Assembly: GCA_002499085.1 (NCBI GenBank)
Contig: DAKD01000027.1
Location: 12,324-76,323 of the forward strand
Reading direction: 5' to 3'
DNA from: Methanomassiliicoccales archaeon UBA280
GTDB taxonomy: Archaea > Thermoplasmatota > Thermoplasmata > SG8-5
DNA length: 64,000 nt
Position numbers and translations under genes: made by a program. The notes beneath the pieces are model-generated. The model was not told the origin of the DNA and searched no databases. It saw only the letters and a list, made by a program, of their open reading frames with translations. Each line of letters begins with the position of its first letter. The stretch's first letter is position 1. Shown piece by piece: positions 25,514 to 51,618 of this stretch.

Positions 25514-28500
25514 GGCCTTCCTGCCCCCTGTCCCTTCCTCTTGCGCAGCATTGCCGTGGCCGCGAGCATTATGCAGGCAGGCAGCAACAGTGCCCACCCG
25601 TACGAGTCTCTCCAGCCAGACGACGAAACAGCCTCTGTCCCGGCCACTGTCACGGCAATACTGGCCTCTGCGGAGTTCCCGTTGGCGTCGAGAACTGTGA
25701 GCGTCACTGTGTACGTTCCCTCGGTCCAGAAGAGGAATGACTGAGTCTGGCCGAACAGGGTTATCTCTGTTCCGTTGTACACGAATGTCCAGGTGAAGTT
25801 GGCTATGCCGGAGCTGTCGTAGCTGCGCGACCCGTCGAATTCGGCCGATGTCCCGGGCAATATGATGCGGTTGGCTCCGGGGGCCGCAATCGGCGGCATG
25901 GTGTCGAGCACGGTCACTGTCATCGTGTCCAGGGCCCAGTTCCCTGCCGCATCCGAGGCATTGAGCGTGACCTGGTATGTGCCGGGCACAGTGAATATCC
26001 AGGAAGGGTTCCGGCCGAACAGGGTTATGCTGTTCAGGCCGTCGTTGAATGACCAGACCCAGCTTGCAACTCCGATGTTGTCCGTGCACCCCGACCCGTC
26101 GAAGAGTGCTGTTTCCGCCTCGTTCACTGTCATGTCCGGGCCTGCGTCTGCCGCCGGGCTTGATGTCTCGAGCACAGTCAGCACCATGGTGTCTGTGCCT
26201 GTGAGGCCTGACGTGTCCGTGACTGTGAGCCGGACCGGGTATGTGCCGGGCACGCTGAAGAAGTGGCGCACCTGCGCGCCTTGGAGAACGAAGTCGGCTG
26301 TTCCGTCGCTGAAAAACCATGTGTATGAGGTTATGTCGACATTGTCCCGGCTGGCAGCGCCGTCGAACCATGTCTCGTTGCCGCTGTAAAGGGACCTGTC
26401 AGGCCCGGCCCTGGCCGTGGGCGCGGTGATGTCGTATATCAGCACCGAGACAGTGTCCACGGCCCAGTTCCCTGCCGCGTCCCAGATCTTCAGAGTTATG
26501 GCATAGTTTCCGGGTGTGGCGAAGACATATGACGGGGTCTGGCCGTACAGAACCTTATCGACATATCTCTCGGTGAAAGACCATGTGTAGTTGACGATGC
26601 CCACGTTGTCCGAGCATGCCGCCGCGCTGAGCTGCACGGCAGTGTCCTCATCTGCGACTATGTCCGGGCCTGCATCGGCCGTCGGATGCGTGATGTCCCA
26701 AACAGTGAGGACAGCGGTGTCGGTGTCCCAGTAACCTGAGGCATCAGTGACGTTCAGTGTGACTGTGTAAATTCCCGGAACAGGGAACATGCGCTGCGGG
26801 GAAATGCCGTACATCTCGATGATTGACTGGCCGGCCGTGAAGGTCCATGTGAAATTGACTATGCCGTGGTTGTCTGTGCTTCCGGCCGCGGTGAAAGTTG
26901 CCGTCTGGCCCTCATTGATCAGCATGTCCTGCCCGGCGTCGGCAACTGGCGGGGCGATGTCCAGCTTCGTGACGAATCCGTCGCTGTTCCCGCCGAATGA
27001 GATGTCCGCAGCACCCGATGATGCGGGAAATGCGGGGGAAAACGTCTCGCCGACTATGTGCGCGAAACCTGTCTGGCCTGCGGCTATTGCCCAGGCATAA
27101 TCATTTTCCGGTCCGCCCAGGAATGTGGAGTCCAGGAGATGTGCCCCTGACGCTGACAGCTTGCTCATGAAGGCGTCAGTGCCGCCGTTGTGCGTCCTGT
27201 CATAGCCCCTCTCCGCCATGGGATAGTCGGGCGATGCCGTGTGCCCCGCAATCGCGGCGCAGCCGTATGAGTCCAGGCTTATGCCGACGCCGGAATCTGC
27301 GTTTGCTCCGCCCAGGAATGTGGAGTATGCAAGACTCTCCCCGTACCTGTCCAGCATGGTGACGAAGGCATCGCTGCCGCCGTTATGCGAGATGTCGTAA
27401 GCGCCCTCGGTGGTCGGAAAGTCGGTTGAGACTGTGCTGCCTGTGACATACACTGTGCCCCATGCCCCCACGGCTATGCCGTTGCCGTAGTCTGCGCTCG
27501 AGCCCCCGATGAATGTGCAGTACATGAACGACGTACCGGTCTGGCTGAGCTTGGCCGCGAAGGCGTCATAACCGCCGTTATGCGTCCTGTCGAAAGCCCT
27601 CGAGGTCGCCGGAAACATGGCGGACCGCGTCTGGCCCGTGATGAAGGCATAGCCGTTGCTGTCGACCGCGATGTCGTTCGCGTAGTCGTAATCGGCATGT
27701 CCCAGGTAGGTCGAGTACTCGATGGAGCTTCCATGGCGGTTAAGCTTGGTCACGAAGCCGTCGTTCGCGCCTGTCGAGCCGCCGTTGAAAGAGCGCATTG
27801 CCGCATCCGACGATATGGGGAAGTTCTGGGACCACGTGTCTCCGACGATATAGGCAGAGCCCGAGCCGTCAACCGCAATGGCGGAGGCGCAGTCCACGGC
27901 CGAGCCGCCCAGGTATGTCGAGTAAATCAGCGAGTCTCCGAGCGGGCTGAACTTGGCAACGAAGGAGTCGTAAGTGTCGCCGTTGTAGGCCGGGCTGAAG
28001 GCGCCCTGGGTCGTGGGAAAATGCTGGCTCATCGTGTAACCAGTGATGTAGGCATTGCCTTCGGAGTCGACCGCTATGCCTTTGCCGAAATCATGGGACT
28101 CGCCGCCCATCATCGCAGTGTATACCACGGAGTCGCCGTTGAGCCCCATCTTCGTGACGAATATGACATTGCTTTCCGGATTCGAGACGCTCACGTAAGC
28201 CCCGAAGGACGTGGGGAAGTCCAGTGAGTCAGTGTATCCGACTGTGTATGCGCAACCGTCCGTGCCTACGGCAACATCGGTCGGGCGATCATACCCAGTG
28301 CCGCCGATGAATGTCGAATATATCAGCGGGTCTATGGTCATGGGCCGGGACATGTCCCTCCGCCCAAGGCTGAATGAGTACATGTTTTCGGAAAGGACCG
28401 TGAAACTTGCCTGGATTTTTTCGGCGACCGCGTCGGTGTAGAACACATCCAGGCCTGCATCGGTTATGCTGCGGCCGTTGCCCAGTTCCATCTCGAGCCC

Positions 28501-30729: not shown

Positions 30730-33147
30730 TTATAAGTCCTTTAATCGTTCCTTGAGTTTCGATACTTCATCCTGCCTCTTTCTCCACTTCTCCTCTTTCT
30801 CTGACAGGGTGGCCTCGCGCTCATCAAGTTCCGCTATCCGGGTCTGGAATTCCGCCAGAATCTCCTCGCGCATCTCCTCGGCCATCTTCTCCAGCTTCCA
30901 TTCCTGGGCCTTGAGCTTCTCGTCCTTGGCGAGCAGTATCTTCTCGTGGTCCCTCAGGTTGCGGTCCTCCTTCTCCAGGTCCTGGCGGGCCTTGACCACT
31001 TTCGCCATCTCGGCCTTGACGTTCTCAAGCTCTGCATGCACCTTGGCCTCATGCTCCTTCAGCATGTTGCGCTGCTCAGCTATCTTCTCGGCATTTGTAT
31101 GAATGGCCTGGTTCTTTTTCTCTATGTCCTTCTCGCGCTTCGCGGCTTCCTTCTCGAAGTTCTTTCTCGAGCCTTCGAACTCCTTTCCGGCAGCGTCCAA
31201 GGCTGCCTGCCTCTCCTCCAGCTCTTCAGCTCTTTCCTCTAGGCCTTTCTCGCGCTTGTCCAGCTCGAGCTTGAGGCTGTCCAGTGCGGAGCGGTGCCTG
31301 TCGAGCTCTGCCCTGTGCTCCTTGAGGTCGGACTCTTTCGCGTCGACTTTCTCGGCTTCCTTGCGCAGCTTCTCCCGCTCCGCCTCGAGTTCTTTCCCGT
31401 GATTGGCAATGTCCTTCTCCAGGCGCTGCCTGTCCTTGGCCAATTCCTTGGCCGCGGCATCGAGTTCCGACTGTTTCGCGCTCATCTCGGATTCGGCGTC
31501 CTCGATTTCCTTCGTCCTGGTTGCCAGCAGTTCCAGCTTCTTCTCCACTTCGCGTGTCGCTTCTTCCAGCTCCTTCAGCTTGTCCTCGGCCTTCTCGCGG
31601 TCCCGCTCAAGCATGCGCCTCTCCCTGGCCATCTCCGTGTTCGCGCCCTTGGCCTCCTTCTCCATATCGGCCAGCTTGTCCATGTCCGCCTTCATCCTTT
31701 CCTCGTCCGCCGCAATCTCCCTTTCCTTCTTCTCCAGCTCCCTGGACATGTTGCGCAGGGCCTTCTTCTCCTCCTTCATGGCATTCTCGATTGCGTCCAG
31801 CTGCTGGCCCATCCTCTCCAGATCCTTCTTCTCAGATTCGATGTCTGATTTTTCATCCGCAAGCTTTTTTCTTTCCTCGGCAACCGCTTCCTTTTGCTCG
31901 GCAAGCTTGGCTTCCGAGGATTCGGCCTTCTCCCGGAGCCTGGCAAGCTCCTTCTCCCTGTCATTGAGTTTGACTGTCTGCGTGTCAAGTTCCTTCGCAA
32001 GAGCGTCCAGCCTTTTCCTCTCGGAGGCCGCGCTCTTCATCTCCGAGCCCAGCTTGGTTTCGATACCCTCCATCTCCTTCTCGCGCCTGGCAAGAAATGC
32101 CTTGGAACCGTCCAGCTCCCGTGCTGTCTGGGCCAGCGCAGTTTCCCTGGAGGCGAGGTCCTTCTCGGCCTTCTGCAGGCGGTCTTCTGTCTTGAGCAGA
32201 AGCGTCTCCTTCTGAACGTAGGATTCGATTTTTTCTTCCAGGTCCACGCGGGCGGCGTTCTGGCGCTTCGTCTCCTCCGAAATGTCGGCCCAGATGGACT
32301 CGAGCTCGGACCTCTCCCTGGCGAGAAGCTTCTCCTTCTGCTCTGCCTCGGACTCGCGCGCCCGCATGACCTCCTCTTCCTTGGCCAGGATCACTTCCTT
32401 CTTCCGAAGGCTGCGTTCCTTCTCGTCGAGGATCCTTGCGCGGTTCTCCAGATCCTCCTGCCTTGCCTGGAGGCGCATCTCCTCCACCTTGCGCTCGGCC
32501 ATGGTCACGACATCGTCCTGGCTCAGACCCTTCTTGTCGGATGCCAACTGCTTCAGCAATGCCACGCTTCCGCTCCTGAGCGCGTCCAGCTCGGACCTCA
32601 TCCTCTCTATGTCCTGGGACCGGTTCACTGCTTCGAGCTTTGCCTGCTCGAGCTCGGCCGACCTCGCATCAAGTTCATCATCGGCCTTTCTCAGAACCTG
32701 GGTCCTCATCCTTCTTTCGCCGGCTTCCCTCCTGGTCTTTTCTATCCTGATCCTTTCCTCGCCCTCGACCGCGCGCAGCACCGAGCCGATGTCTGTCTCG
32801 CCCAGTATTCCGGCCGGGTAGGGTTCCGCAACATGGGTGACTGAGATGGATGATGATTTGTACGAGTAAGAGCGTATTTCGATTATACAGTCCTCGTTCG
32901 CGGAGTCGCGCGCAATCTCGTACACGGCGCTCTCGCCCAGCAATGTCCCGTCGCTCTCGTGGATCGCGAGATAGGGCATGCCTTTCCTGGTGACAAGGTG
33001 GCCCGACGAGGCTGTGCCGTCGCGCATGAAGCTTGTCTTCAGGAGGCCGTCCAGCTTGCCCTCTCCGAGTGCCGCCAAAGCCTTCGCGAGCGAGCCCTCT
33101 CCGCCGAAAACCGTGTTCAGTATCCTTCCGCCGGGCAGATTCACCAT
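30730..33147 (-). CDS. long coiled-coil protein with a ~130-aa N-terminal globular domain
   Basis: 805 aa. After the N-terminal domain (MVNLPGGRILNTVFGGEGSLAKALAALGEGKLDGLL...) there are about 650 aa of uninterrupted E/K/R/L/A-rich heptad-like sequence. No Walker motifs are present. Confidence 0.7.
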   Translation of the reverse strand: MVNLPGGRILNTVFGGEGSLAKALAALGEGKLDGLLKTSFMRDGTASSGHLVTRKGMPYLAIHESDGTLLGESAVYEIARDSANEDCIIEIRSYSYKSSSISVTHVAEPYPAGILGETDIGSVLRAVEGEERIRIEKTRREAGERRMRTQVLRKADDELDARSAELEQAKLEAVNRSQDIERMRSELDALRSGSVALLKQLASDKKGLSQDDVVTMAERKVEEMRLQARQEDLENRARILDEKERSLRKKEVILAKEEEVMRARESEAEQKEKLLARERSELESIWADISEETKRQNAARVDLEEKIESYVQKETLLLKTEDRLQKAEKDLASRETALAQTARELDGSKAFLARREKEMEGIETKLGSEMKSAASERKRLDALAKELDTQTVKLNDREKELARLREKAESSEAKLAEQKEAVAEERKKLADEKSDIESEKKDLERMGQQLDAIENAMKEEKKALRNMSRELEKKEREIAADEERMKADMDKLADMEKEAKGANTEMARERRMLERDREKAEDKLKELEEATREVEKKLELLATRTKEIEDAESEMSAKQSELDAAAKELAKDRQRLEKDIANHGKELEAEREKLRKEAEKVDAKESDLKEHRAELDRHRSALDSLKLELDKREKGLEERAEELEERQAALDAAGKEFEGSRKNFEKEAAKREKDIEKKNQAIHTNAEKIAEQRNMLKEHEAKVHAELENVKAEMAKVVKARQDLEKEDRNLRDHEKILLAKDEKLKAQEWKLEKMAEEMREEILAEFQTRIAELDEREATLSEKEEKWRKRQDEVSKLKERLKDL

Positions 33148-40052: not shown

Positions 40053-40931
40053 ATGAACAAGATAAAGAGCGGGGTTTACGGCCTTAACACGCTGCTGGAC
40101 GGCGGCATCAATGAGAATTCCGCCACTGTCGTGATAGGCTGCTCCGGTGCAGGAAAGACCACGCTTGCAACCCAGTTCATCAGGCGCGGCCTCGAGCTGG
40201 GCCAGGAGGGCATCTTCGTCAGCCTTGATGAGAACAAGGAGCAGATAATCAAGGAAGCTGTCCAGATGGGCTGGAAGAAGATTGTGGATTACATTGACGA
40301 GGAGAAGCTGGTTTTCATCGATGCCTCGGGACATGAGTTCTCGGCTTTCATCAGGAAGGAGTTGCCTTCCTTTGTCGCGGACTGGAAAGGCGCGAACGCC
40401 AGGATATCCATCGACCCGCTCACGCCTGTCATGTGGTCCACGGCCGACAGGTACGAGCAGCGCGAGCTCATAGGCTTCATGCTGAAGGAGACGAGGAAAG
40501 TGGGTACCGTCCTGGCCACGCTTGAGGAGCACGGCATGGCCGGCGATTTGTCGGGCAATGAGACAGTGATCCCCATGTACCTTGCAGACTGCGTGATACA
40601 TCTCAAGAGCATACACACCCCGGAAGGTGGCCTGCAGAGGCGGCTCAAGATCCTGAAGTGCAGGAGCAGCAGGCACAGCAAGACCGAGCACAGGTATTCC
40701 ATAGTGAAAGGACTGGGAATCGTGGTGGACCCGGAGAGGTCCAGCTTGCTTCCGTCGAAGAAGATGCCTGACCAGTTCAGGAAAATCCTCGAGCAGAAGA
40801 AGGATTCCATCCCGAGCAGGGTATATACCAGGCTTACAGAGGCCCTCGAGGAGCTTAGGGACGACGACTTCTCCGAGATAGAGCTGGACACGCTTGTCCG
40901 CGAGATAATTGCCGAGTACAGCAGCGACTGA
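40053..40931 (+). CDS. single-domain KaiC/RecA-superfamily ATPase
   Basis: Supporting sequence: GVYGLNTLLDGGINENSATVVIGCSGAGKTTLATQF (Walker A) and VFIDASG (Walker B-like). Confidence 0.8.
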   Translation: MNKIKSGVYGLNTLLDGGINENSATVVIGCSGAGKTTLATQFIRRGLELGQEGIFVSLDENKEQIIKEAVQMGWKKIVDYIDEEKLVFIDASGHEFSAFIRKELPSFVADWKGANARISIDPLTPVMWSTADRYEQRELIGFMLKETRKVGTVLATLEEHGMAGDLSGNETVIPMYLADCVIHLKSIHTPEGGLQRRLKILKCRSSRHSKTEHRYSIVKGLGIVVDPERSSLLPSKKMPDQFRKILEQKKDSIPSRVYTRLTEALEELRDDDFSEIELDTLVREIIAEYSSD

Positions 40932-40987: not shown

Positions 40988-41698
40988 ATGAGCGAGGGAA
41001 TTGGAAAAGCGCTGGCAAATGCCATTAGGGACGAGCCGGTCTTGGCGGCTGAAGCCCGTGGCCGGCATGTTTTCCAGAATTCGAACAGGCGCGGCGTTTT
41101 CACCTTGCTTACGGAGAATCCCTGCATGGGAGTGGGCATGCTGGCATCAATCACGGGCCTATCCAAGAATTCAGTTAAGTGGCATCTTGAGGCGCTTGTC
41201 AAGGCAGGGTATCTCGTCAGATTCGGAGCGGGAAGGGGCAATGTGTTTTACCCGGAGGGGCTGATAAGCCAGGAAACGGCCGGGCTGTTCCTCGTCATAA
41301 ACAGCCCGAGGCAGAGCAGCCTGTTCAGGGGAATCGTCGCCAGACCCGGGCTTTCGCAGCGCGACATAGCGACCATCCATGGGAAAAGCAGGCAATGGGT
41401 GGCCGCCTCGATGAAGACGCTGGAACAGGCAGGCCTTGTGAGCGGCGTGGCTGACGGCGCGCACACAAGGTATTACCCGACCAGACTGCTTCCTGACATG
41501 GCCGACGGTTTCTACAGGGCCTCGAAGGATTTCGGGGACTACATGCTCAAGAAGCTGGGCCGGGAGGGCGGCGCAGCCCCGGCAGTGGTGAAACACGGCC
41601 TTGACAGGATATTGGTCGAAGTGGGCCATCAATCCAGCAGGTTCAATATCGAGATAGGCGTCAATCCCTACCTAACCTGTCTCGGGTGTAAAATTTAA
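40988..41698 (+). CDS. transcriptional regulator with two winged-helix (ArsR/MarR-like) domains
   Basis: There are two copies of the wHTH pattern: ...MLASITGLSKNSVKWHLEALVKAGYLVRF... and ...GLSQRDIATIHGKSRQWVAASMKTLEQAGLVSGV... Confidence 0.65.
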   Translation: MSEGIGKALANAIRDEPVLAAEARGRHVFQNSNRRGVFTLLTENPCMGVGMLASITGLSKNSVKWHLEALVKAGYLVRFGAGRGNVFYPEGLISQETAGLFLVINSPRQSSLFRGIVARPGLSQRDIATIHGKSRQWVAASMKTLEQAGLVSGVADGAHTRYYPTRLLPDMADGFYRASKDFGDYMLKKLGREGGAAPAVVKHGLDRILVEVGHQSSRFNIEIGVNPYLTCLGCKI

Positions 41699-41715
41699 CA
41701 ATTAGTTGTACCAAT
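41697..41715 (+). promoter_or_regulatory. AACAATTAGTTGTACCAAT box upstream of the giant gene, related to the TACAAAAC-N3-GTACCAAT boxes of the SBP promoter modules
   Basis: The 11-mer GTTGTACCAAT (41705-41715) equals the reverse complement of 19419-19429. By eye, 15 of 19 positions match the full box. Confidence 0.4.
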
Positions 41716-41762
41716 GAAGTTAGATTTAAAGACTATCAATGTTAATTGTAAAACTACAATGC

Positions 41763-41770
41763 CTATATAG
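41763..41770 (+). promoter_or_regulatory. TATA box (CTATATAG) of the giant gene
   Basis: It lies about 24-31 nt upstream of ATG 41794, which suggests a leaderless or very short-leader mRNA. Confidence 0.5.
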
Positions 41771-41793: not shown

Positions 41794-44700
41794 ATGTATC
41801 AGACAGATGATGACCTTGTCGAGCTTCTGCTCATACCGAAAGTCGGGAGAGCGCGCGCCAGGTCGCTTTTCAATGCCGGCTTCAAAACTCTCGATGATCT
41901 TGCCCGCGCAAAGCCCGAACAACTCCTTGGCATTCCCGGAATAAGCCAGGGCATTGCCGCCGGGATCATAGAGTCTGCCAACGGCATGCTCATCTCGAAG
42001 CCTGCCGACGAGAGGCTCGAGTCGAAATCCGGTATCGACATCTGCCCCCTGTGCGGGTCCATGGTCAGCGCCGGCGCCAAGGTCTGCAACGGCTGCGGAG
42101 TGACCTTCAGCGACGAGGTGGAGGACCTGACCCAGGAACTTGGGGCCCGTGAAGGGGAGGAAGGGCATGACGGATTCTGGTACAGAGACCAGGGAAAATT
42201 GTTCATCTGCCCGGAATGCGGCTCCCTTGTCGCGGACGGGAGCCAGGCATGCCCGAACTGCGGTGTGCGCTTCGAGGAGGGCGGAGATGAGGAGCTGGAG
42301 CCGCCAGCACCGGCCGCCGGAGACGCGGACGGGTTCTGGTACAAGTCCGGCTCGAAGATATCCATGTGCCCGAACTGCGGCTCTTTCCTCAGCGGGGATG
42401 CTGCGAGCTGCACGTCCTGCGGCCTCGTGTTCGAGGCGGGCGAGGAGGAGGAGCTGGAGCCGGAAAAATTCACATGCCCCATGTGCAAAAAAGACCTCCA
42501 TCCTGGCGCGGACAGATGCGAAGGGTGCGGATTCGACTTCTCCGCGGAGAAGGACAAGGACGGGTTCTGGTACAAGGAACAGGGAGGCCTGTTCATGTGC
42601 CCGAACTGCGGCGCATTCATACCCAGAGACGCCGAGAGATGCAGCATATGCAATTCAGTCCTCGAGGTTGGCGAGGAGGAGGATGTGCCTCAGCCCCAGG
42701 CTGTGCTCTGCCCGATGTGCGGCATTCCGGCGCCGGCCGGTGCCGGGAAATGCGCAAGCTGCGGGTTCGACTTCTCCGAGGAGAAGGACAAGGACGGGTT
42801 CTGGTACAAGGACTCGGTGGCGCTTTTCATCTGCCCGATGTGCGGGGCCTTCATGTCCGAGGCGGCGGATAAATGCGCAAACTGCGGGGCTGTGTTCGAA
42901 GAGGACGGGGCGGAAAAGGAGACCGCGAGAGATATTGTTCCCGACATGGCCGCGAAAATAACCGTGGAAAAGGAGGCAGATGAACTCATCGAGATGATGG
43001 AGATCGAGGAGGAGCTCGATGCCGCCACAAAATCGGGTCCCCGGGATTCTCAAGACCTGCCCGCCGATGGGGAGACTGTTGCGCCTGTGCCCGCTTCCGA
43101 TTCTCTCGTGCTGTGCCCTGTTTGCGGTGCGTTTTCAAGATCCGGCGGGACCAAATGCCCTGCATGCGACGCCGTGTTCGACGACATAGAGGACATGGAG
43201 CTTGCGGGTGTCAGACCCGCGAGAGCCGCAGATGCAGAATTGGCTAGCGAGATGGCGGCCGAGATCCGGGAGATCGAGGCTGAGCTCCTCGAACCGGCCA
43301 AGCCCATGAAATCGGAGAGGGGCGGCGTTTCCAAGGACTTCCTGGACAGGTGGAAGAGGCTTGACGGGAACGGTGGGGTTTCTGGACAGGCAGGCAAGAG
43401 GTCTGCCAAGCCCACGGATGCGGAAATTGAAAAGGAGCTGGGCCTGGACGGCCTACCGCGGGCCGAGGACCTGTCTTCGCAGATTGACGAGGCCGAGCTG
43501 GAGGCGGGCATAGACGAGATGGCAGGCAAGCCCAAACCTGCGGGATTCTGGATCCAGAGGGCGAGAGAACTTGCCGCTGGCGGGCAGGTGGAGGAGGCAG
43601 TTGCATGTCTTGACAGGGCTGCGGAAACAGACCCGGACAGGGAGCTGGAGTACAAGCGGCTGATGCTCGAGCTGATGGGAGTTGGCTACCCCGAGGCAAA
43701 GGTTGACATTTCAGAGATTGCGGCGATAGACGACATAGGAGAGCTGAAAATAGACAGGGAGCTTCTCTCGGGAAAAACAGAGAGAAGGTTGGCTGAGATA
43801 GACCGCGAACTGGACAGGGAGCCGGGAAACAGCGCGCTCTGGCAGGAGAAGGGGGAGCTTCTGGAGAAGCTGGGGCGCCATGAGGAGGCTGTCCAGTGCT
43901 TCGACACCTCCATCAGCATGACATACGCGGAGCTCAGGAAGGAGACGAAGGACGCGCACAGGCATGTCCCCCAGATAGGCATCGGGCTGACAAACGGCCA
44001 GGGCCGCGTGAACGGCCGCGTGAACGGGCTTCTCATCCAGCGCGGGCTTTCCAGGGGAGAGACCAATGGCCTTGCCGATGGAAGGACAAACGGCCGCGTG
44101 AACGGGCTCAGGGTCCCGAGGGGCAAGATCAACGGCATGGTTAACGGACTTTCTGGCAGGGTGAACGGCCTAACTAACGGCAAGATCAACGGAACAGGAC
44201 TGGTCAGCGGCAGGACAAACGGAAGGACCAACGGCCGCATTAACGGCACTGGTATGATAAACGGCGCCGGCATGGTCAACGGCTCCAGAGGCCTCATCAA
44301 CGGCGGGCTAGTGAACGGCCTGGGCCTCGTTAACGGAGAGGCAATGGTCGGCGGCTCCGGCGTCCTTCGCAGGATGAGGAGAAGGCGCAGGGAGCGCATA
44401 ATGTGGCGGTACAGGCTCACGGCAATGGCCCTTTTCGTCACGCTGGTGCTGATGCTCTCCATGCTTGGGAACCTGATGGTCGAAGAGGAGTCGGGCGCAA
44501 TTCACATTGACGGCAGCTTCGCAGACTGGGACGGAGTGCGGATTTACAGCAACTTCCTCGGAGCGCCGGTGAGCCCGAACCTGAGGATCCTCGAAACAGG
44601 GATGGTGCTCGAGGAGGATTCGGTCAAAGCCAGGGTGCTGTTCGAGGGACAGCCTTTCAATGCGGCCGATGGGGCGGTCGATTCTGTATGGGCGTTCATA

Positions 44701-47700
44701 GACCTTGACGGCGACCCGGCCACCGGGTACATCCTGGAGGGAATGGGCGCAGACCTGGCCGCGGAGATGTACGGCTGGAACGGCACTGTCATGGGCACCA
44801 ATCTCCACAGGTTCGACGGCACGCTTAACAGGAGCGACTGGAACGGATTCTACAATGCCGGTTCCGTTGACTGCGAGTTAGGGGGCAACGGCCTCGAGGC
44901 AAGCCTGCGCATACCCCGCGACATGGCAGCGAGCGTGAATGACCCCGGCATGCTCGTCATGACGCTGGACTCGGAGGGAAACTCCGATGTCACGGACTAT
45001 TTCATGTCAGAGTCCGCGGGGGGAAATGCAGCCACGTTCAGGCATTCCGGGGCCGACATCCTCACCCAAGGAACTGCCGCAACCCTGGGCGAGCTTACAT
45101 TGAGCGCACATTCCGCGAACGGGGCAGAGTTCCGGAGCCTGGATTTCACTGCAGAGGGAACCTTCATGCCGGACATTTCCCTGATCGGCTCGGACGGCAG
45201 CGAAATACCTGTTCGCCCGTCTGTATCCGGAAATACTCTTTCCCTCGAATTCGTGCATCCCCTGGTTCTGGAATACGGCACGGCTGTTACATTGACTCTT
45301 GAGGCAAGCATCCCCCTAGCGGCCGCGGGAACTCTGGGCCTCAGGCTTGATAGCGCCAATGCAACTGACGGGGCCAGAGTGCGCAACCTGAATTCGAAGC
45401 TGCACAACCTGGGCATGCCGGAAGACATGACAGTGGACGGGGCCTTCGGAGACTGGGCATATTCGCCGGCAAACCCTGACAGGGCCGGAGATGTGATTTC
45501 CGGCTCGGGGAACCGGGATTTCATCAATTCGAACGTTGACCTTGCGGACGCAAGGCTTGCTGACGATGGCGTCAGCCTGTTCTTCTACGCCTCGGTTCAT
45601 GGCGTTATGATGGGCGGCTCCGAAATCCCGACGATAAGGTCCAGGCCGGGACTGCCGGGGCCGGCCGGCGAGGCTGACTCGGACAGGGATTCTGTGCCTG
45701 ACAGGCTTGACACCCTCTACCTGGACTTCAACAATGACGGGATTCCCGATTCCGAATCCGTCATGCCGGATGACGCCCCGGACCTTGACGGCGACGGCAT
45801 TGCGGATTATCCGGGCGGACCAGATTGGTGGCTGAACACCACCATACCCGCGGATGTCGAGGCGCCGTACGGCGGCTCCTTTGTCTCGGTGTACATAGGG
45901 CCGGTCGACGTGTCCCACCGGGAGAATCTTGGCGACGACAGGGCCTACATCATGTTCGATACCGATGAAAATCCGGCGACAGGAAGCAACCTGAGGGGCG
46001 CTCCCGGGGTGGAGTACGCCGTCGTGATAAGCGGAAAGCAGAACCGCATAATGGCAGCCGAGCTCTACGTCAGCGACCCAAGTCACTTGCCCACCGGCTG
46101 GAGGTTTGTGAGGGATGTTTCTGCGGCAACGGACTGGACCAGGCTGGAGGGCGCGGTTCAATATTCGGCGCTCGGCCTCGGCCCGGGCGGCAATTTCACG
46201 GCCTACATGGCCCTGGAGGACTGGAACGGAGCCGGCGATATCTCCGATGAAAACCTGGGAGCCTCGGATTTGCCGGCATCGCCTTCCGGGACGCGTTCGC
46301 CTGCCGGTGACTATGTCGTCATAAACGAGATAATGCCCGCCCCGGACACAGGGGAGTGGATAGAGCTGTGCAACCCAACCTCGGGTCCGATAAACATCGG
46401 CGGATTGAGGCTGCGCATCGGAAACAGGGATCTCATCGTATTTCCTGCGAACACGATACTCGGGGCCTTCGGGTCAGGAACCGAATATTATCTTGCGACA
46501 TTCTACGGCTGGAGGGACGATATCCCCAACGGCGGCGGAACAGTCCTGTTCCAGTGGGACAGCCCTGGGCCAGGCTGGACGACGCGCGATTCGTTCACTT
46601 ACACCGCTGTTCTGGCAGGCCAGAGCTATGCCAGGCTCAAGAACTCCACCTGGGGCATGCCCCTTGACACGGACTCGACCGCGGACCTGTACGCTTCCCT
46701 TCTTCCGAGCCCGGGTGCCCCGAACGACAGGACCAGGCCCATCATCAATGCCGACAAGAATGCCGACGCAGAGTACGGCATGCCGGGCGATTCCGTAGTT
46801 TACACGATATGGTACAACAACACCGGCGACGGCAATGCCAGGCATGTCTGGGTGAATGATACGATCCCGACAGGCTTGACATACCAGTCCTCGAGCCTTC
46901 CTTATGCGTCATACTCGGGCCAGACCTATTGCTGGTACTTCTCCCACGTTGCTCCGGGGACCCATTCCTTCACTGTCACGGCCACCATCGATGCCGGCGT
47001 GCCCTCAGGCACTGTTCTGACGAACATGGTTCAGATCCAATACACTGACCAACTTTCAAGGCCCATGGGCACAACCTCGGACACTTGGGACGTCACCGTC
47101 CAGGTCCCTCCGCCGGTTATTACTCTGATCAAGACTGCCTCCTACACCAACCCGTCCCCGGGCGACGACGTTGATTTCACGATTTACTACAACAACACCG
47201 GAACCGGAACCGCAACCAATGTTTGGCTGAATGACACGCTCCCTGCCGGAATGACGTATATCGCAGCGACTCCTGTGCCGGACTCGGTCGCCGGCCAGAT
47301 CATCTTCTGGCATTTCCAGAGCTTGGCCCCGGGAAATTATCAGCTCACTGTGACGGCGCAGGTCGGAGCCGCTGTTCCGGTCGGCACAGTGATGACCAAC
47401 ACTGTCGACTGCGACTACACGGATTCGTCCGACGACCCGATTCCGGGGCTGACTGCCTCGGCAAGCGTCACGGTGACTGACCCCCTCAGCAGGATTGTCA
47501 TGAACGAGATTTCCGTCCAAGGAAACGACAACGAATGGGTGGAGGTGTGCAACCCCACCTCGACCCCTATCGATGTGAGCGGGTGGCGCATCAGGGCCGG
47601 AACTGTGACGGTATACACATTCCCCGCAGGCACGATACTTGGAGCCTGGGGCTCCGGTTCAGAATATTTCGTGGCCGATACGGGCGGCGGCAATGATTTC

Positions 47701-48762
47701 GGCAACGGAGGCGGAACAGTACAGCTCCAGCGGCGAATAGGTTTGGTCTGGACGACCATGGACCAGACAACCTACCCGGGCGGCATAGCCGCAACCCAGA
47801 CATGGTCCAGGTTCAAGCATGAGGACACGGGAATGCCGGAGGACACAGGCGCGACTGCGGACTGGTACATTTCCGACAATGCATGGCTGGTACCCGAGGG
47901 CCCGACCCCGGCCGCGCCCAATGACAGGAAGAGGCCCATAATGGAAGTCTGGAAAAGCGCCTCTCCGCTGATTGCTGAGCCGGGACAGCTGGTGACGTAC
48001 ACAATATGGTACAACAATACCGGCGACGGGAATGCCAAGGATGTGTGGGTCAATGACACGCTGCCCACCGGAATGGATTATGTCTCGGCAAACCCGACCC
48101 CCGCAAGCGTCTCAGGGCAGGACATTGTCTGGTACTTCAACAATGTCAACCACAACACAGTCAACTCCATCACCCTGACGGCAAGAGTGAGCGCGCTGGC
48201 AGCCGACGGGGACATTCTGGTCAACACTGCAACTCTGGTCTACCATGACGCGCTCAGGAGACCCATGGGCTCGAGCGCGGACACGGCCGATGTCACATGC
48301 TCCAGAGCCGTGATCTCTGTCGAAAAAGTTGCTGATGTCGCCGAGACCGTGGCAGGAGGCACTGTTGTTTACACGATATATTACAACAATACCGGCAGCG
48401 CAAACGCCGGTTCAGTGTGGGTCAACGACACGCTGCCCGCGGGAGTGACTTTCATGTCTGCCAGCATCCCGCCGACTGTTTCCGGCAGCGTCCTGAGTTG
48501 GCATCTGACCGATGTTGCTCCGGGCACGCATTCCATAACTGTGACTGTCGCTGTAAATGCCACGGCAGGAAGCGGAACAATAACCAACTGGGCTTTCCTG
48601 GACTATGCCTCCAACTACGGCACAGCCCTGGGCTCCGGTTCGGACTCCGCAACCGTTATCATCCCGGAGATGGGGCGGCTTGCCGTGCCTCTGCTGGGCA
48701 TCATGCTGATGGCAATTGCAGGAATAGGAAAAGGGAGGAGGAACGATGGAAAGAAAGTATGA
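41794..48762 (+). CDS. giant (2322 aa) bitopic protein: cytoplasmic HhH + 8 zinc ribbons + TPR + N-G repeats; extracellular Ca-binding-like D-rich repeats + 2x[lamin-tail domain + 2 DUF11 repeats]
   Basis: One uninterrupted ORF. Domains in order:
- HhH motifs: LIPKVGRARARSLFNAGF and LLGIPGISQGIAAGI.
- Eight CxxC-N(9-12)-CxxC ribbons, four of them preceded by DGFWYK/R.
- A TPR-like segment.
- An (x)NG repeat tract, followed by RRMRRRRRE and a TM helix.
- D-rich DxDxDG-like repeats.
- Two LTD units: VINEIMPAP..EWIELCNPT and VMNEISVQG..EWVEVCNPT.
- Four DUF11-type units: YTIWYNNTGDGNA..VWVNDT.P.G.
- A C-terminal TM helix followed by KGRRNDGKKV. Confidence 0.85.
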   Translation: MYQTDDDLVELLLIPKVGRARARSLFNAGFKTLDDLARAKPEQLLGIPGISQGIAAGIIESANGMLISKPADERLESKSGIDICPLCGSMVSAGAKVCNGCGVTFSDEVEDLTQELGAREGEEGHDGFWYRDQGKLFICPECGSLVADGSQACPNCGVRFEEGGDEELEPPAPAAGDADGFWYKSGSKISMCPNCGSFLSGDAASCTSCGLVFEAGEEEELEPEKFTCPMCKKDLHPGADRCEGCGFDFSAEKDKDGFWYKEQGGLFMCPNCGAFIPRDAERCSICNSVLEVGEEEDVPQPQAVLCPMCGIPAPAGAGKCASCGFDFSEEKDKDGFWYKDSVALFICPMCGAFMSEAADKCANCGAVFEEDGAEKETARDIVPDMAAKITVEKEADELIEMMEIEEELDAATKSGPRDSQDLPADGETVAPVPASDSLVLCPVCGAFSRSGGTKCPACDAVFDDIEDMELAGVRPARAADAELASEMAAEIREIEAELLEPAKPMKSERGGVSKDFLDRWKRLDGNGGVSGQAGKRSAKPTDAEIEKELGLDGLPRAEDLSSQIDEAELEAGIDEMAGKPKPAGFWIQRARELAAGGQVEEAVACLDRAAETDPDRELEYKRLMLELMGVGYPEAKVDISEIAAIDDIGELKIDRELLSGKTERRLAEIDRELDREPGNSALWQEKGELLEKLGRHEEAVQCFDTSISMTYAELRKETKDAHRHVPQIGIGLTNGQGRVNGRVNGLLIQRGLSRGETNGLADGRTNGRVNGLRVPRGKINGMVNGLSGRVNGLTNGKINGTGLVSGRTNGRTNGRINGTGMINGAGMVNGSRGLINGGLVNGLGLVNGEAMVGGSGVLRRMRRRRRERIMWRYRLTAMALFVTLVLMLSMLGNLMVEEESGAIHIDGSFADWDGVRIYSNFLGAPVSPNLRILETGMVLEEDSVKARVLFEGQPFNAADGAVDSVWAFIDLDGDPATGYILEGMGADLAAEMYGWNGTVMGTNLHRFDGTLNRSDWNGFYNAGSVDCELGGNGLEASLRIPRDMAASVNDPGMLVMTLDSEGNSDVTDYFMSESAGGNAATFRHSGADILTQGTAATLGELTLSAHSANGAEFRSLDFTAEGTFMPDISLIGSDGSEIPVRPSVSGNTLSLEFVHPLVLEYGTAVTLTLEASIPLAAAGTLGLRLDSANATDGARVRNLNSKLHNLGMPEDMTVDGAFGDWAYSPANPDRAGDVISGSGNRDFINSNVDLADARLADDGVSLFFYASVHGVMMGGSEIPTIRSRPGLPGPAGEADSDRDSVPDRLDTLYLDFNNDGIPDSESVMPDDAPDLDGDGIADYPGGPDWWLNTTIPADVEAPYGGSFVSVYIGPVDVSHRENLGDDRAYIMFDTDENPATGSNLRGAPGVEYAVVISGKQNRIMAAELYVSDPSHLPTGWRFVRDVSAATDWTRLEGAVQYSALGLGPGGNFTAYMALEDWNGAGDISDENLGASDLPASPSGTRSPAGDYVVINEIMPAPDTGEWIELCNPTSGPINIGGLRLRIGNRDLIVFPANTILGAFGSGTEYYLATFYGWRDDIPNGGGTVLFQWDSPGPGWTTRDSFTYTAVLAGQSYARLKNSTWGMPLDTDSTADLYASLLPSPGAPNDRTRPIINADKNADAEYGMPGDSVVYTIWYNNTGDGNARHVWVNDTIPTGLTYQSSSLPYASYSGQTYCWYFSHVAPGTHSFTVTATIDAGVPSGTVLTNMVQIQYTDQLSRPMGTTSDTWDVTVQVPPPVITLIKTASYTNPSPGDDVDFTIYYNNTGTGTATNVWLNDTLPAGMTYIAATPVPDSVAGQIIFWHFQSLAPGNYQLTVTAQVGAAVPVGTVMTNTVDCDYTDSSDDPIPGLTASASVTVTDPLSRIVMNEISVQGNDNEWVEVCNPTSTPIDVSGWRIRAGTVTVYTFPAGTILGAWGSGSEYFVADTGGGNDFGNGGGTVQLQRRIGLVWTTMDQTTYPGGIAATQTWSRFKHEDTGMPEDTGATADWYISDNAWLVPEGPTPAAPNDRKRPIMEVWKSASPLIAEPGQLVTYTIWYNNTGDGNAKDVWVNDTLPTGMDYVSANPTPASVSGQDIVWYFNNVNHNTVNSITLTARVSALAADGDILVNTATLVYHDALRRPMGSSADTADVTCSRAVISVEKVADVAETVAGGTVVYTIYYNNTGSANAGSVWVNDTLPAGVTFMSASIPPTVSGSVLSWHLTDVAPGTHSITVTVAVNATAGSGTITNWAFLDYASNYGTALGSGSDSATVIIPEMGRLAVPLLGIMLMAIAGIGKGRRNDGKKV

Positions 48763-48947
48763 GCACAGGACAAGGAGCAGGACAGGATGGATGTGGGTTG
48801 CCTTTGAGGGGGCCCTATCCAACCTTCCGATACTGGTATGCGGGTTCGCCGTTGCACTAGCCCTTGTCAACGATGTGTTCGGAAGCTGATTGCTGCACTG
48901 ATGCCGAGATGGCGCCGAGGCAGAGCCAGGGTTAAGCCGATGGCAGT

Positions 48948-50736: not shown

Positions 50737-51618
50737 TCAGAGATAGCCCGATGTCTGCAGGAGCATTATGTCCTCCGTGCTCAGCTTTTCGCCTCTCTTG
50801 AACTTCTCGTATATGTCCTTGGCCTCGTCGCGCTCGCTCTTCTGCTCGCGCGGCGCTGCCGCATCCTCTTCTGTCGGGGGCGTATCCCTGTGCCTGAGGC
50901 CTGAGAGCATCTTGTCGTAGTCGTGGACCTGCTTTATCATCTCTATGTGCTTCTGATGTTCCTCGTCGGCCTGGACCTTGCATTTTATGAAGCTGTCCTG
51001 GGCCTTGTCCGCCTCCTTTCTTATGGCGTCGGAGCGGTCGTAAATCTCCATCATGCTGTCATGCTCTTTCTGGGACTGAACCGCCAACTCCTCGACCTTC
51101 GCATGGAAGTATTCGGCCTTGTCCCTGGCCTCGTTCGCTTCCGCAATCAGCGCCTTTATCTCCTCATCGCCCTCGAGCTCCTTCTCCAAGGCCTGTATCT
51201 CCGCGTTGAGGGCGCGCATCTGGTCTATCAAGTCCTTCTCCTTGCTCGGGCTCAGCGAGGATGTCTGCTGCTGGAATTCCAGGTCCTTGAGTTTCTTCTT
51301 CAGAAGCCTTATCGGAGGGCCCTTGCGGGGTTCCTTGTCGCGTTTCTTTCTTGCAAGGACCTCGGCTGTTTCGTTGACCCTCCTGTTCCACAGGTCGCGC
51401 TGCACCTTGATGTCCCTGACTTCCTGATTGAGCTGGTTCCGCTTGGCCTTGTGGACGTTGGCCTGGTCAATGTGCTCCCTGGCCTGGGCGTTCAGGTCGT
51501 CCCTCTTCCTGACCCACTCCTTTGTCTGCTCGTTCAGCCTGTCCCTGTGGTGGCGGTGCTTCTCCGCCTCGGCGTTGTGACGCTCGCGCTTCTCCATCAG
51601 TTCCTCAATCAGATCCAT
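50737..51618 (-). CDS. conserved archaeal coiled-coil protein (COG1340-like)
   Basis: 293 aa of charged, heptad-rich sequence ending ...IYEKFKRGEKLSTEDIMLLQ. The assignment to the archaeal coiled-coil family is from memory of that pattern. Confidence 0.6.
   Translation of the reverse strand: MDLIEELMEKRERHNAEAEKHRHHRDRLNEQTKEWVRKRDDLNAQAREHIDQANVHKAKRNQLNQEVRDIKVQRDLWNRRVNETAEVLARKKRDKEPRKGPPIRLLKKKLKDLEFQQQTSSLSPSKEKDLIDQMRALNAEIQALEKELEGDEEIKALIAEANEARDKAEYFHAKVEELAVQSQKEHDSMMEIYDRSDAIRKEADKAQDSFIKCKVQADEEHQKHIEMIKQVHDYDKMLSGLRHRDTPPTEEDAAAPREQKSERDEAKDIYEKFKRGEKLSTEDIMLLQTSGYL

Follow-up and report, generated by a model that had tools for sequence, protein, structure and literature searches.

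The window, as the whole 64-kb stretch of DNA analysed is called here, harbors a conserved set of neighboring genes on its forward strand, to which all features below belong except a palindrome without assigned strand. The first gene encodes a KaiC-like single-domain ATPase of the RecA superfamily (40053–40931, +, 292 aa), followed by the gene of a dual-wHTH regulator (40988–41698, +, 236 aa). As noticed in the original prediction, both lie directly upstream and on the same strand of a giant gene (41794–48762, +), a single ORF encoding 2322 aa. Its product is predicted to be a bitopic surface protein with its N-terminus inside. A micro-ORF of 47 aa (48746–48889, +) follows, which is preceded by GGAGG and has a 17-nt overlap with the giant gene's stop codon. 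Comparison of related loci indicates a conserved module of KaiC-like ATPase, 2xwHTH protein, giant protein and 47-aa TM micro-protein, in which the giant gene takes third place. Scans of the 64-kb window for tRNA genes and Rfam families were empty.

The giant protein belongs to a family. About 20 full-length homologues are known from Thermoplasmata and Methanomassiliicoccales-related MAGs, which share 39–70% identity and are collinear over 99–100% of the length. All complete relatives unite the cytoplasmic Zn-ribbon module and the ectodomain in one ORF, in agreement with the proposed single polypeptide. Short matches restricted to the N-terminal part are few (P0034–P0037); their source is a metagenome library that lacks annotation, and they may have been truncated. 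The identical protein is found on NCBI DAEZ01000023.1 and on ENA ERZ27315072, two independent assemblies, which speaks against an assembly chimera. Family alignments display invariant key residues in both halves of the protein. A compositional break at 44.4 kb was looked for in the giant gene and none was found, and the only tandem repeats are three short ones (26–42 nt), all within the part coding for an NG repeat. A genome scan with the full 14-sequence alignment gave no sufficiently conserved block and was repeated with 7 closer sequences. None of the three findings that had been named in advance as refuting the proposal, concerning topology, chimerism and fusion, was obtained when each was examined. 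Judged by these comparisons, the giant protein is a real, conserved and putatively membrane-spanning surface protein of uncultured Thermoplasmata archaea.

Only two hydrophobic segments are present, at aa 873–898 and 2287–2314, and an N-terminal signal peptide is missing. The first segment, TM1, is preceded by the basic patch RRMRRRRRERIMWRYR and is a likely signal anchor (patch and TM1 together 44368–44487, +). Its N-terminal flank contains 9 K/R, the C-terminal flank 0 K/R and 4 D/E. The same asymmetry is seen in 35 of the 36 members of the family (on average 5.0 K/R on the N-side vs. 0.9 on the C-side). The positive-inside rule therefore places the N-terminal 870 aa in the cytoplasm, both in the giant protein and in 35 of the 36 relatives, as the original prediction had it. 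This orientation agrees with the distribution of the domains, since the 32 Zn-ribbon cysteines all precede TM1 and the isopeptide/CLIPPER, LTD and Ca-loop modules all follow it, which supports the claimed extracellular location of the C-terminal ~1390 aa. In the family, cysteine accounts for 3.2% of the N-terminal part vs. 0.3% of the C-terminal part. The density of N-glycosylation sequons was no guide to the topology, as the ectodomain contains 15 (13 expected). The giant protein is thus predicted to be of type II, with a flexible cytoplasmic arm of ~870 aa and an outward chain of beta-sandwiches of ~1390 aa.

The domains proposed earlier were recovered by HMM searches, in which HHH_5, Zn_ribbon_3/DZR, TPR, LTD and DUF11 all scored above Pfam's own cut-offs. 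At the N-terminus, an (HhH)2 head is located (aa 9–68; 41818–41997, +), whose two HhH motifs match HHH_5 (PF14520) at aa 10–62 with 41.8–49.7 bits against a cut-off of 27, and which AF2 models with a pLDDT of ~90. Its closest structural relatives are domain 5 of Hel308/Hjm, the N-terminal domain of RadA/Rad51 and the N-terminal extension of haloarchaeal eL32; among PDB entries, 2zj2 is matched at E 2.6e-8, and 1pzn and 9l94 as well. The first hairpin of the head is basic. A helicase or recombinase core is absent from the giant polypeptide.

The head is followed by eight CPxCG-type zinc ribbons (aa 84–458; 42043–43167, +) separated by acidic, disordered linkers. A regular expression for CxxC-x(6-20)-CxxC returned exactly the eight units claimed, starting at aa 84, 139, 192, 228, 269, 306, 347 and 441, and the motif DGFWY[KR] precedes four of them (units 2, 3, 5, and 7). 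In the AF2 model, the ribbons appear as beta-hairpin beads (pLDDT ~70–78) on a disordered string; all of their Cys columns are invariant (alignment A4). Further downstream, a conserved motif is present, GGVSKDFLDRWKRL (aa 508–522; 43315–43359, +). Within this motif (GVSKDFLxRW), the F, R and W are invariant in alignments A1 and A4, and the pattern [KRS][DS]F[LIM]xRW was found in 22 of the 27 relatives checked. The TPR-like helices are present as well (aa 585–720; 43546–43953, +, pLDDT ~90); this domain includes LWQEKGELLEKLGRHEEA, and TPR_2, TPR_8 and TPR_9 match at aa 585–615 and 682–709. The arm ends at the membrane with the N-G tract already seen in the original prediction, a basic Arg/Asn/Gly-rich repeat of [RLK][VTI]NG units (aa 722–858; 43957–44367, +), which is predicted to be disordered (pLDDT ~29) and gave no match in a Pfam scan. 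Its G and N columns are invariant throughout the family. Overall, the arm is strongly acidic, and its AF2 model is mostly of low confidence (mean pLDDT 59).

The ectodomain consists of two parts. Part 1 (aa 899–1608; 44488–46617, +) is all-beta in the AF2 model (mean pLDDT 74.6) and gave no match in Pfam and PDB sequence searches. The domain of unknown type assumed for this region resolves, according to AF2 and Foldseek, into a set of beta-sandwich modules, to which no specific fold name could be given. Foldseek searches with the 721-aa ectodomain model returned solely generic adhesin, CBM and Ig beta-sandwiches with TM <0.2, a value that is low because the model is multi-domain. Two of the modules begin with DGxFxDW, and the second of these has conserved acidic loops of the DxDxDG type around aa 1293–1340 with invariant Asp columns. 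These loops are what stands of the thrombospondin-like D-rich repeats described before; a match to TSP_3 itself was absent (none with E<=1 in aa 1291–1610). The D-rich tract is of low AF2 confidence.

Part 2 (aa 1609–2286; 46618–48651, +) has the order 2x (LTD + CLIPPER + CLIPPER). The duplication of this block, recognized from the beginning, amounts to 47% identity over 274 aa (E 1.9e-73). The Lamin tail domain (PF00932) is present in two copies (73.8 bits, cut-off 34.3), and DUF11, now called CLIPPER (PF01345), in four stretches (175 bits, cut-off 24.6; TIGR01451 E 2e-46). One of the DUF11 repeats aligns to the CLIPPER crystal structure 9IFR, a weak match with E 0.0012. CLIPPER is an extracellular, CnaA-like isopeptide domain (PMC12617251). 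With its CLIPPER stalk, LTD and Ca loops, the ectodomain has the look of an adhesin with a structural role more than of a classical sensor of ligands. Among the relatives, the ectodomain is swapped and the cytoplasmic module kept, which is typical of receptors with variable inputs.

At the C-terminus, the family-conserved tail IIPEM-GRLAVPLLGIMLMAIAGIG-KGRRNDGKKV is found (48652–48762, +). The hydrophobic and basic parts of the second TM helix and basic tail postulated here exist, but they belong to a conserved [IV][IV]PE[FM]-hydrophobic-basic ending, and 33 of 36 relatives end in such a PE[FMYL]-type tail. This arrangement of motif, hydrophobic helix and basic residues is the three-part one of PEF-type signals. 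A sorting signal resembling the archaeosortase PEF-CTERM is a more likely role for this helix than that of a permanent second TM helix; or else the tail would be a simple C-terminal anchor. Against the PEF-CTERM and PEFG-CTERM HMMs (TIGR03024, TIGR04296), the tails scored, the window tail and four relatives, remained below threshold (best 14.6–16.2 bits vs. 23–25). In the other ORFs of the window and of the related loci, PE[FM] tails were searched and seen in the giant proteins alone; the other surface proteins of the window have a different ending, a TM helix with a basic anchor. Archaeosortase substrates with PGF-, PEF- or PEFG-CTERM (Haft et al., 2012, as cited in PMC12617251) share with the giant protein the IPE[FM] motif, the hydrophobic helix and the basic tail, a family-conserved end on a surface protein with CLIPPER domains. 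They differ in that the giant tail scores below the NCBIfam cut-offs and in that these substrates have a cleavable signal peptide, in contrast to the uncleaved N-terminal signal anchor behind 870 cytoplasmic residues predicted here. Processing of the PE[FM] tail would make the giant protein an unusual archaeosortase substrate, one that retains an N-terminal membrane anchor.

In the micro-ORF product, the N-terminus is basic, and the TM helix at the C-terminus carries the motif NLP[IL]LVCG. The micro-ORF is conserved behind the giant gene in L005, L006/L017, L008, L009, L015 and L019.

The KaiC-like ATPase matches PF06745 with E 6.6e-37, and an NCBIfam search of the 292-aa protein also gave KaiC-type matches. 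It has an intact Walker A motif (GCSGAGKT), the motifs FVSLDE and LVFIDAS and a conserved C-terminal extension of ~65 aa ending in ..EIIAEYSSD. The regulator contains HTH_24 at aa 32–76, MarR_2 at aa 107–161 and a conserved C-terminal domain; homologues of it occur in the same lineage only (12 clusters). A CxxC at its C-terminus was considered as a conserved metal site and rejected, since it is missing in distant orthologues. Co-occurrence of the three genes, suggested for phylogenetic profiling, was seen at every related locus with enough upstream DNA: the order KaiC-like, wHTH, giant is found adjacent and on the same strand in 17 loci (L003–L024), and the last two genes in L013, where the locus ends inside the wHTH gene. 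The triad also occurs in distant loci without a PdxS neighbor (L021, L022, L024). In most loci, the KaiC-like gene begins 9 nt after pdxS and may be co-transcribed with this housekeeping gene. Across loci it is far better conserved (62–93% identity) than the giant gene (28–73%). Here, all elements of a KaiC-centered cassette are found, as Walker A and B are intact, a DNA-binding output and a membrane partner adjoin, and the arrangement is conserved across genomes. Family B, an HhH-Zn-ribbon-polytopic-TPR family, was considered as a wider KaiC partner and rejected, the one locus examined having neither a KaiC nor a wHTH gene. The neighborhood of P0026 is uninformative because the contig end is reached.

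Between the regulator and the giant gene, a conserved promoter is present (41753–41769, +, 11 loci). It consists of a BRE-like ACTACAA followed by TATATA (41764–41769). The TATA box noted earlier is real: in each of the 11 homologous loci that were compared, TATATA occupies positions -27 to -32 relative to the ATG, together with a conserved CTAYAAT block. Starting 30 nt before the giant gene's ATG, the box implies a leaderless or near-leaderless mRNA. Further upstream, ~85–97 nt from this ATG, the palindrome AACAATTAGTTGTA is located (41697–41710). Its ACA-N6-TGT core has ACA and TGT columns that are invariant in 11/11 aligned upstream regions, which have a mean identity of 59%, and it has no second match in the 64-kb window. 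It is a candidate binding site of the wHTH protein encoded next to it, as an operator or as an upstream activating site.

A second type of cassette exists in L026, L004, L029 and L030. Here, an HTH protein (~180–200 aa) is followed by a KaiC-like protein (~237 aa) and a giant protein. These KaiC-like proteins share 24–27% identity with those of the first type and the HTH proteins have no detectable similarity, which indicates that both are different paralogues. In the type-2 giants, an N-terminal head of ~190 aa replaces or precedes the HhH domain. An HMM of this head matches the head of P0122 (E 2.6e-13), which in turn matches the Pfam family KaiC (PF06745; profile positions 37–191, without the P-loop) with 27.7 bits against a cut-off of 26.6, and also MEDS. 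This suggests that the type-2 head is an inactivated KaiC-like domain, the link being transitive and running via P0122 just above the Pfam cut-off. A Pfam scan of the ~190-aa heads of P0027 and of the L004 protein gave no match, and comparison of type-2 heads with the cassette KaiC-like ATPase yielded nothing with BLAST and a probability <1% with hhalign. In P0017, a type-2 head is combined with the LTD/CLIPPER ectodomain that the window protein also has. As a Rosetta-stone type of evidence, the fusion of this putatively inactivated KaiC-like head in type-2 giants would link the cytoplasmic arm to KaiC.

The giant protein is probably the membrane part of an uncharacterized surface-to-cytoplasm signaling or tethering module. 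Of the roles suggested originally, nucleoid tether, DNA uptake and signaling, comparative support was gained by signaling or coupling alone. The functional readings rest on gene neighborhood and domain logic. Adjacency of the triad, the second cassette, the head fusion, the swapping of ectodomains and the conserved promoter and palindrome favor the view that the giant protein, as a surface receptor or adhesin, is coupled to a hub of KaiC-like ATPase and wHTH protein, a reading we hold tentatively, at slightly less than even chances. At the cell surface of Thermoplasmata, which is wall-less or thin-walled, the ectodomain would serve in adhesion or as a receptor, and the arm would be a scaffold on which the KaiC-like ATPase docks, and perhaps also the wHTH protein or, via the HhH head, nucleic acid. 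The giant protein's state, in terms of ligand or adhesion, tension or integrity, would then be relayed to the KaiC-like hub and from there to the wHTH regulator, which would act at the ACA-N6-TGT site upstream of the predicted strong, leaderless promoter of the giant gene. An archaeosortase-like enzyme would probably process or lipid-anchor the C-terminal tail after export, and such anchoring would hold the ectodomain at both ends. A role as archaeal signaling hubs has been proposed for KaiC-like ATPases and iKaiC/MEDS domains, a concept that is itself a prediction (Makarova, Galperin and Koonin, 2017, as cited in PMC5847659). These hubs share with the module a single-domain ATPase with intact Walker motifs adjoining a wHTH gene and a membrane-linked partner, and an iKaiC/MEDS-like domain fused to the partner, as in some relatives of the giant protein. 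The partner here differs, being a bitopic protein of 1400–2900 aa with an HhH/Zn-ribbon/TPR/NG arm and an adhesin-type ectodomain. A paper describing the architecture of the giant protein or the cassette was not found; a prior mention in Makarova et al. (2017) is possible.

The adhesin-stalk modules of the ectodomain also fit an abundant structural envelope protein or adhesin, for instance of a coat, an S-layer-like structure or aggregates, whose Zn-ribbon/TPR arm is tied to FtsZ, the cytoskeleton or a cortical scaffold, and whose expression or assembly is all that the KaiC-like ATPase and the wHTH protein control. In Methanothermobacter, aggregation is brought about by DUF11 proteins (PMC6759345, as cited in PMC12617251), the strong and conserved BRE/TATA consensus suggests high expression, and a chain held at both ends would lie along the surface. 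A precedent for the arm is CdpC, whose CPxCG ribbons and long disordered linker tether FtsZ1 to the membrane (bioRxiv 10.64898/2026.07.16.738847). Nevertheless, such a role leaves the inactivated KaiC-like domain fused to the arm of type-2 relatives and the adjacency of two different KaiC/HTH paralogue pairs unexplained, and FtsZ is encoded near the giant gene in one locus only (L006). We consider this role rather unlikely, if a serious competitor.

More doubtful is an archaeal counterpart of integrin-type outside-in coupling, a variant in which an adhesin fixed to the surface at both ends has a zinc-ribbon arm of 870 residues that keeps at the membrane a ring of the KaiC-like ATPase and perhaps the wHTH protein or DNA. 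The KaiC-like hub would be switched, and transcription thereby reprogrammed, when the putatively isopeptide-stabilized ectodomain adheres or comes under mechanical load, and the head domain, HhH or inactivated KaiC, would be an exchangeable docking piece.

Still less probable is a nucleic-acid membrane tether, in which the HhH head, perhaps with the NG repeat and the ribbons, binds DNA or RNA and thus ties to the envelope the chromosome, mRNA, or DNA on its way in or out, and the KaiC-like ATPase acts on that nucleic acid. The head does most resemble the DNA-binding (HhH)2 domains of Hel308/Hjm and RadA/Rad51 with its basic first hairpin, the NG repeat is Arg-rich, and KaiC-like ATPases belong to the RecA/RadA superfamily. 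However, (HhH)2 domains also serve protein-protein contacts, and an iKaiC domain can replace the head in a relative with the same ectodomain (P0017). In addition, the conserved neighborhood is devoid of pilus, competence, nuclease or translocase genes, and the arm as a whole is acidic. Finally, an artefact could result from chimeric assembly, from read-through between two genes or from pseudogene decay, but nothing was found in its favor, and it is only the unusual size and domain combination that raise the question. It is already refuted by the collinear homologues and the two independent assemblies, with the invariant residues, the few short repeats and the uniform composition at 44.4 kb on the same side.

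KaiC-like ATPases are the most abundant predicted signaling ATPases of archaea, and we know of almost none with a known input or output. The cassette offers a concrete, conserved and testable case, with a membrane partner that has a huge putative docking arm, a regulator and a candidate operator. The giant protein also suggests that some archaeal "adhesin-like" giants span the membrane with large cytoplasmic domains and are not passive surface decoration, which bears on envelope organization and sensing in wall-less Thermoplasmata.

Other known systems resemble parts of the giant protein. Cytoplasmic zinc module, single TM helix and extracellular domain are also the layout of bacterial proteins such as zf-HC2 anti-sigma factors and TcaA, whose match to the giant protein is marginal. 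Here, homology is confined to the zinc ribbon, the scale is very different, the partners of the giant protein are KaiC-like and wHTH proteins, and archaea have, to our knowledge, no sigma factors. Fibrillar adhesins with DUF11/CLIPPER stalks (PMC12617251) and the Methanothermobacter aggregation proteins are likewise large and combine tandem CLIPPER with other beta-sandwich modules; the fibrillar adhesins have no cytoplasmic domain, in contrast to the giant protein, which is one third cytoplasmic. CdpC (HVO_0399) from Haloferax volcanii, likened to the giant protein by its published description only, has CPxCG ribbons and a long disordered linker at the cytoplasmic face of the membrane as well, but two ribbons and no ectodomain. 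Distant multi-Zn-ribbon relatives of CdpC have been reported in Thermoplasmatota (bioRxiv 10.64898/2026.07.16.738847).

The gene neighbourhood of the giant gene (41794-48762, forward strand) represents the main new result. Here, the gene tables of four divergent homologues were combined with tblastn searches of the window proteins against 24 loci. Whenever a contig extends far enough upstream, the giant gene is preceded by a KaiC-like ATPase gene (about 292 amino acids; 40053-40931 in the window) and a gene encoding a regulator with two winged helix-turn-helix (wHTH) domains (about 236 amino acids; 40988-41698), all adjacent and on one strand. This order, called type 1 in the following, was found in the related loci L003-L012, L014-L017, L019-L022 and L024. 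It confirms the original prediction, which had placed both genes directly upstream on the same strand and had proposed to profile their co-occurrence. PdxS lies upstream of KaiC in most loci, with the most distantly related (L021, L022, L024) as exceptions; judged by gene order, this leaves KaiC-wHTH-giant as the conserved core. In most related loci a gene for a DUF7121 coiled-coil protein (50737-51618, reverse strand; 51-87% identity) lies between the giant gene and SHMT, which may be simple synteny.

The type-1 KaiC-like protein retains both Walker motifs (A and B) and the catalytic FVSLDE, and is 62-93% identical among loci, far above the conservation of its neighbours. At its C-terminus, about 65 amino acids (40737-40931, aa 229-292) form a conserved helical extension ending in ..EI[IL]xEYxx[DEG], which might, speculatively, act as a docking peptide with the TPR domain of the giant protein as one possible partner. 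The wHTH regulator has homologues in this lineage only. A fourth gene completes a conserved four-gene module: a micro-ORF of 47 codons (48746-48889, forward strand) overlaps the stop codon of the giant gene by 17 nucleotides, has GGAGG in front, and encodes a peptide that is basic at the N-terminus and has a TM helix with NLP[IL]LVCG at the C-terminus. It is kept downstream of the giant gene in at least six other loci (L005, L006/L017, L008, L009, L015 and L019). Locus L026 contains two giant genes, one of them encoding P0027 of the second cassette type, each followed at the same position by a micro-ORF for a 46-47-amino-acid CxxC..CCVC zinc ribbon.

Upstream of the giant gene, the predicted TATA box was recovered as TATATA in each of the 11 upstream regions compared, starting 27-32 nucleotides ahead of the ATG and preceded by a conserved CTAYAAT block (BRE/TATA block at 41753-41769, at a fixed distance from the ATG in 11 loci). 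An archaeal TATA box usually lies about 26-27 nucleotides upstream of the transcription start, and because the TATA-ATG spacing matches this distance, it fits a leaderless transcript. The palindrome AACAATTAGTTGTA (41697-41710), with an invariant ACA-N6-TGT, is situated about 55 nucleotides further upstream, where it starts at the wHTH stop codon; its distance from the ATG is again fixed in 11 loci. No second match occurs within the 64-kb window, and nothing else in this intergenic region, which otherwise averages 59% identity, is as well conserved. Archaeal activators usually bind at this place, and the palindrome is a likely candidate operator of the adjacent wHTH protein.

A second, paralogous cassette type was found in four loci. 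Here, the order is HTH protein (about 180-200 amino acids), KaiC-like protein (about 237 amino acids) and giant, as seen at L026:6743-14603 (giant P0027), L029:3997-11668 (P0017), L030:1615-9014 (P0122) and L004:18567-24747, where the giant has 1640 amino acids and the cassette follows directly downstream of a type-1 cassette. The type-2 KaiC-like proteins share 47-59% identity with each other, just 24-27% with type-1 KaiC, and lack the C-terminal extension; for the HTH proteins no BLAST similarity to the type-1 regulator was found. These comparisons indicate that the same triad is maintained with different paralogues.

The type-2 giants possess an N-terminal head of about 190 amino acids with an alpha/beta fold, which replaces the HhH in P0017, P0122 and the L004 protein and precedes it in P0027. 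An HMM built from four such heads matches the P0122 head (E 2.6e-13), which in turn matches MEDS and Pfam KaiC PF06745 (27.7 bits, barely over the 26.6-bit cut-off; profile positions 37-191, not covering the P-loop). By this route the head would be an inactivated KaiC-like (iKaiC-like) domain, a modest and transitive link since direct hhalign comparison of the heads with the cassette KaiC was not significant. Inactivated KaiC domains have been described as partners of archaeal KaiC hubs (PMC5847659, citing Makarova et al., 2017). P0017, with such a head, has the same LTD/CLIPPER type of ectodomain as the window protein; therefore, head domains are exchangeable within one family.

By sequence and comparison, the giant protein itself is a conserved bitopic surface protein. 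Just two segments (aa 873-898 and 2287-2314) have the hydrophobicity needed to cross the membrane, and the window protein is without an N-terminal signal peptide. The flank on the N-terminal side of TM1, RRMRRRRRERIMWRYR, contains 9 K/R within 15 residues, the C-terminal one, EESGAIHIDGSFADWD, zero. In the family (36 members), the 20-residue flank before TM1 averages 5.0 K/R, against 0.9 after the helix, and the positive-inside rule is obeyed in 35. Furthermore, the family-wide cysteine content is 3.2% in the N-terminal parts, with the residues located in zinc ribbons, and 0.3% in the C-terminal parts, and to our knowledge the domain types on the C-terminal side occur in extracellular proteins only. 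Because of this charge asymmetry, cysteine split and domain content, the predicted orientation, N-terminus inside and ectodomain outside, is accepted.

The anticipated second TM helix and basic tail are both seen at the C-terminus, which reads IIPEM, hydrophobic helix, KGRRNDGKKV. This description has to be extended, as [IV][IV]PE[FM] is kept at this position in 33 of 36 family members and makes the tail resemble the archaeosortase signals PEF-CTERM and PEFG-CTERM. With 14.6-16.2 bits the tail does not pass the cut-offs (23-25) of the corresponding HMMs, and it is described as PEF-CTERM-like, not assigned as a member.

Within the cytoplasmic arm, Pfam matched HHH_5 (aa 10-62), many Zn_ribbon_3/DZR (between aa 84 and 470) and TPR units (aa 585-615 and 682-709); together with LTD and DUF11 in the ectodomain, every domain type proposed for checking thus matched at Pfam's own cut-offs. 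A simple pattern scan for CxxC-x(6-20)-CxxC returned exactly eight ribbons, of which numbers 2, 3, 5 and 7 have DGFWY[KR] in front, in line with the predicted counts of eight and four. An AlphaFold2 model of aa 1-898 (alignment of 19 sequences) displays an (HhH)2 head of high confidence (pLDDT about 90) and eight small zinc beads, each a beta-hairpin (pLDDT about 70-78), spaced by acidic disordered linkers, as well as two long helices and a confident TPR-like helical domain (aa 585-720). The head most resembles domain 5 of Hjm/Hel308 (2zj2, E 2.6e-8), the HhH extension of haloarchaeal eL32 and the Rad51/RadA N-terminal domain. Between ribbons and TPR lies a short conserved motif, G[VI]SKDFLxRW. 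The stretch of about 135 amino acids before the TM helix, a basic, membrane-adjacent repeat of [RLK][VTI]NG units (43957-44367, aa 722-858), is modelled as disordered (pLDDT about 29) and has no Pfam model; it is kept in every family member.

The ectodomain contains two lamin-tail (LTD) and four DUF11 domains at Pfam's own cut-off. The block of one LTD and two DUF11 domains occurs twice, as originally noted, the copies being 47% identical across 274 amino acids. DUF11 is now named CLIPPER, and its crystal structure revealed that the domain is extracellular and that an isopeptide bond stabilises it (PMC12617251); one repeat of the window protein aligns weakly to the CLIPPER structure 9IFR. The first part (aa 899-1619) is modelled as all-beta (mean pLDDT 74.6), and Foldseek returned generic adhesin, CBM and Ig-like sandwiches only, with no specific fold; two modules herein open with DGxFxDW and show a weak mutual similarity. 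For the D-rich tract, the proposed thrombospondin-like nature found no TSP_3 match in Pfam, but its DxDxDG-type aspartates are invariant across homologues.

Across the family (about 1400 to 2900 amino acids), the cytoplasmic module and C-terminal tail are retained and the ectodomain is swapped: LTD is absent from P0019 and P0020, and macroglobulin-type domains are present in P0026 and P0122.

By type, the window's cassette would belong to the KaiC-centred archaeal signalling cassettes and the giant to the archaeal adhesin-like surface proteins. Each domain type is already known; the novelty lies in how they are combined, in the size of the cytoplasmic arm and most of all in the conserved cassette. 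No paper on this combination or cassette was found in our literature search, and a 2017 KaiC survey outside that search may already list the neighbourhood. Our tentative reading, held with slightly less than even confidence, is that the arm would be a scaffold on which the KaiC-like ATPase docks, and that through the wHTH protein the module would make transcription respond to the state of an adhesin or receptor at the surface. A less probable reading, though one to be taken seriously, is that the protein is chiefly a structural coat or adhesin with an arm attached to the cytoskeleton, KaiC and wHTH being mere regulators; the zinc ribbons of CdpC, which anchor FtsZ1, offer a precedent. A nucleic-acid tether acting through the (HhH)2 head is improbable, weakened because HhH is replaceable by iKaiC in relatives and no DNA-transaction genes were found near the giant gene. 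The giant ORF as an artefact, left with a vanishingly small probability, is ruled out by the identical protein in two assemblies and about 20 collinear full-length homologues. The giant module offers a clear, testable way into archaeal KaiC-hub biology and envelope sensing.

The predicted single ORF reads through as an uninterrupted translation of 2322 amino acids. The identical protein is present on NCBI MAG contig DAEZ01000023.1 (GCA_002497815.1) and an independently assembled ENA contig; the agreement of two independent assemblies and the collinear homologues speak against the chimerism that had been considered. The homologues (39-70% identity, 99-100% coverage; 5.8 billion proteins searched) originate without exception from uncultured Thermoplasmata, Thermoplasmatota or Methanomassiliicoccales-related MAGs, and are named only as lamin tail, DUF11 or zinc ribbon domain-containing proteins. 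Searched exhaustively with HMMER, 1.84 billion representatives yielded 43 proteins below 1e-30; when one genome was scanned for each GTDB species, the family turned up in that lineage only, with Ca. Proteinoplasmatales SG8-5 and UBA147 among the carriers. The family is therefore small and limited to one lineage.

A related family (P0053, P0076, P0079, P0090, P0094 and others; L027:4190-7720) comprises proteins of 800-1400 amino acids with HhH, 7-11 zinc ribbons, a polytopic membrane domain (4-7 TM helices) and, at the C-terminus, a TPR (..NKGYVLVKLGRYDEA..). At the one locus examined, no KaiC or wHTH gene was found alongside.

The window encodes further surface proteins. Each of three tandem paralogues (11069-19343, reverse strand; about 918-922 amino acids) carries a signal peptide and, at the C-terminus, a TM helix with a basic anchor (..SP[TA]EIT..); their domains are SBP_bac_5 (peptide/oligopeptide-binding) and the Ig-like Big_1. 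A 1283-amino-acid protein (22520-26371, reverse strand) combines DUF7948, SBBP beta-propeller repeats and PKD with a C-terminal TM and basic anchor. An 805-amino-acid ORF (30730-33147, reverse strand) without Pfam match has a coiled-coil-like C-terminus and lies in a region of strongly negative AT skew (-0.31). Finally, the low-GC segment 59562-62962 (0.41 versus about 0.58) contains a D12-class N6-adenine DNA methyltransferase, next to it a 278-amino-acid ORF without Pfam match that may encode a restriction enzyme, and also a DDE_Tnp_1 transposase, and looks like a small mobile or restriction-modification island.
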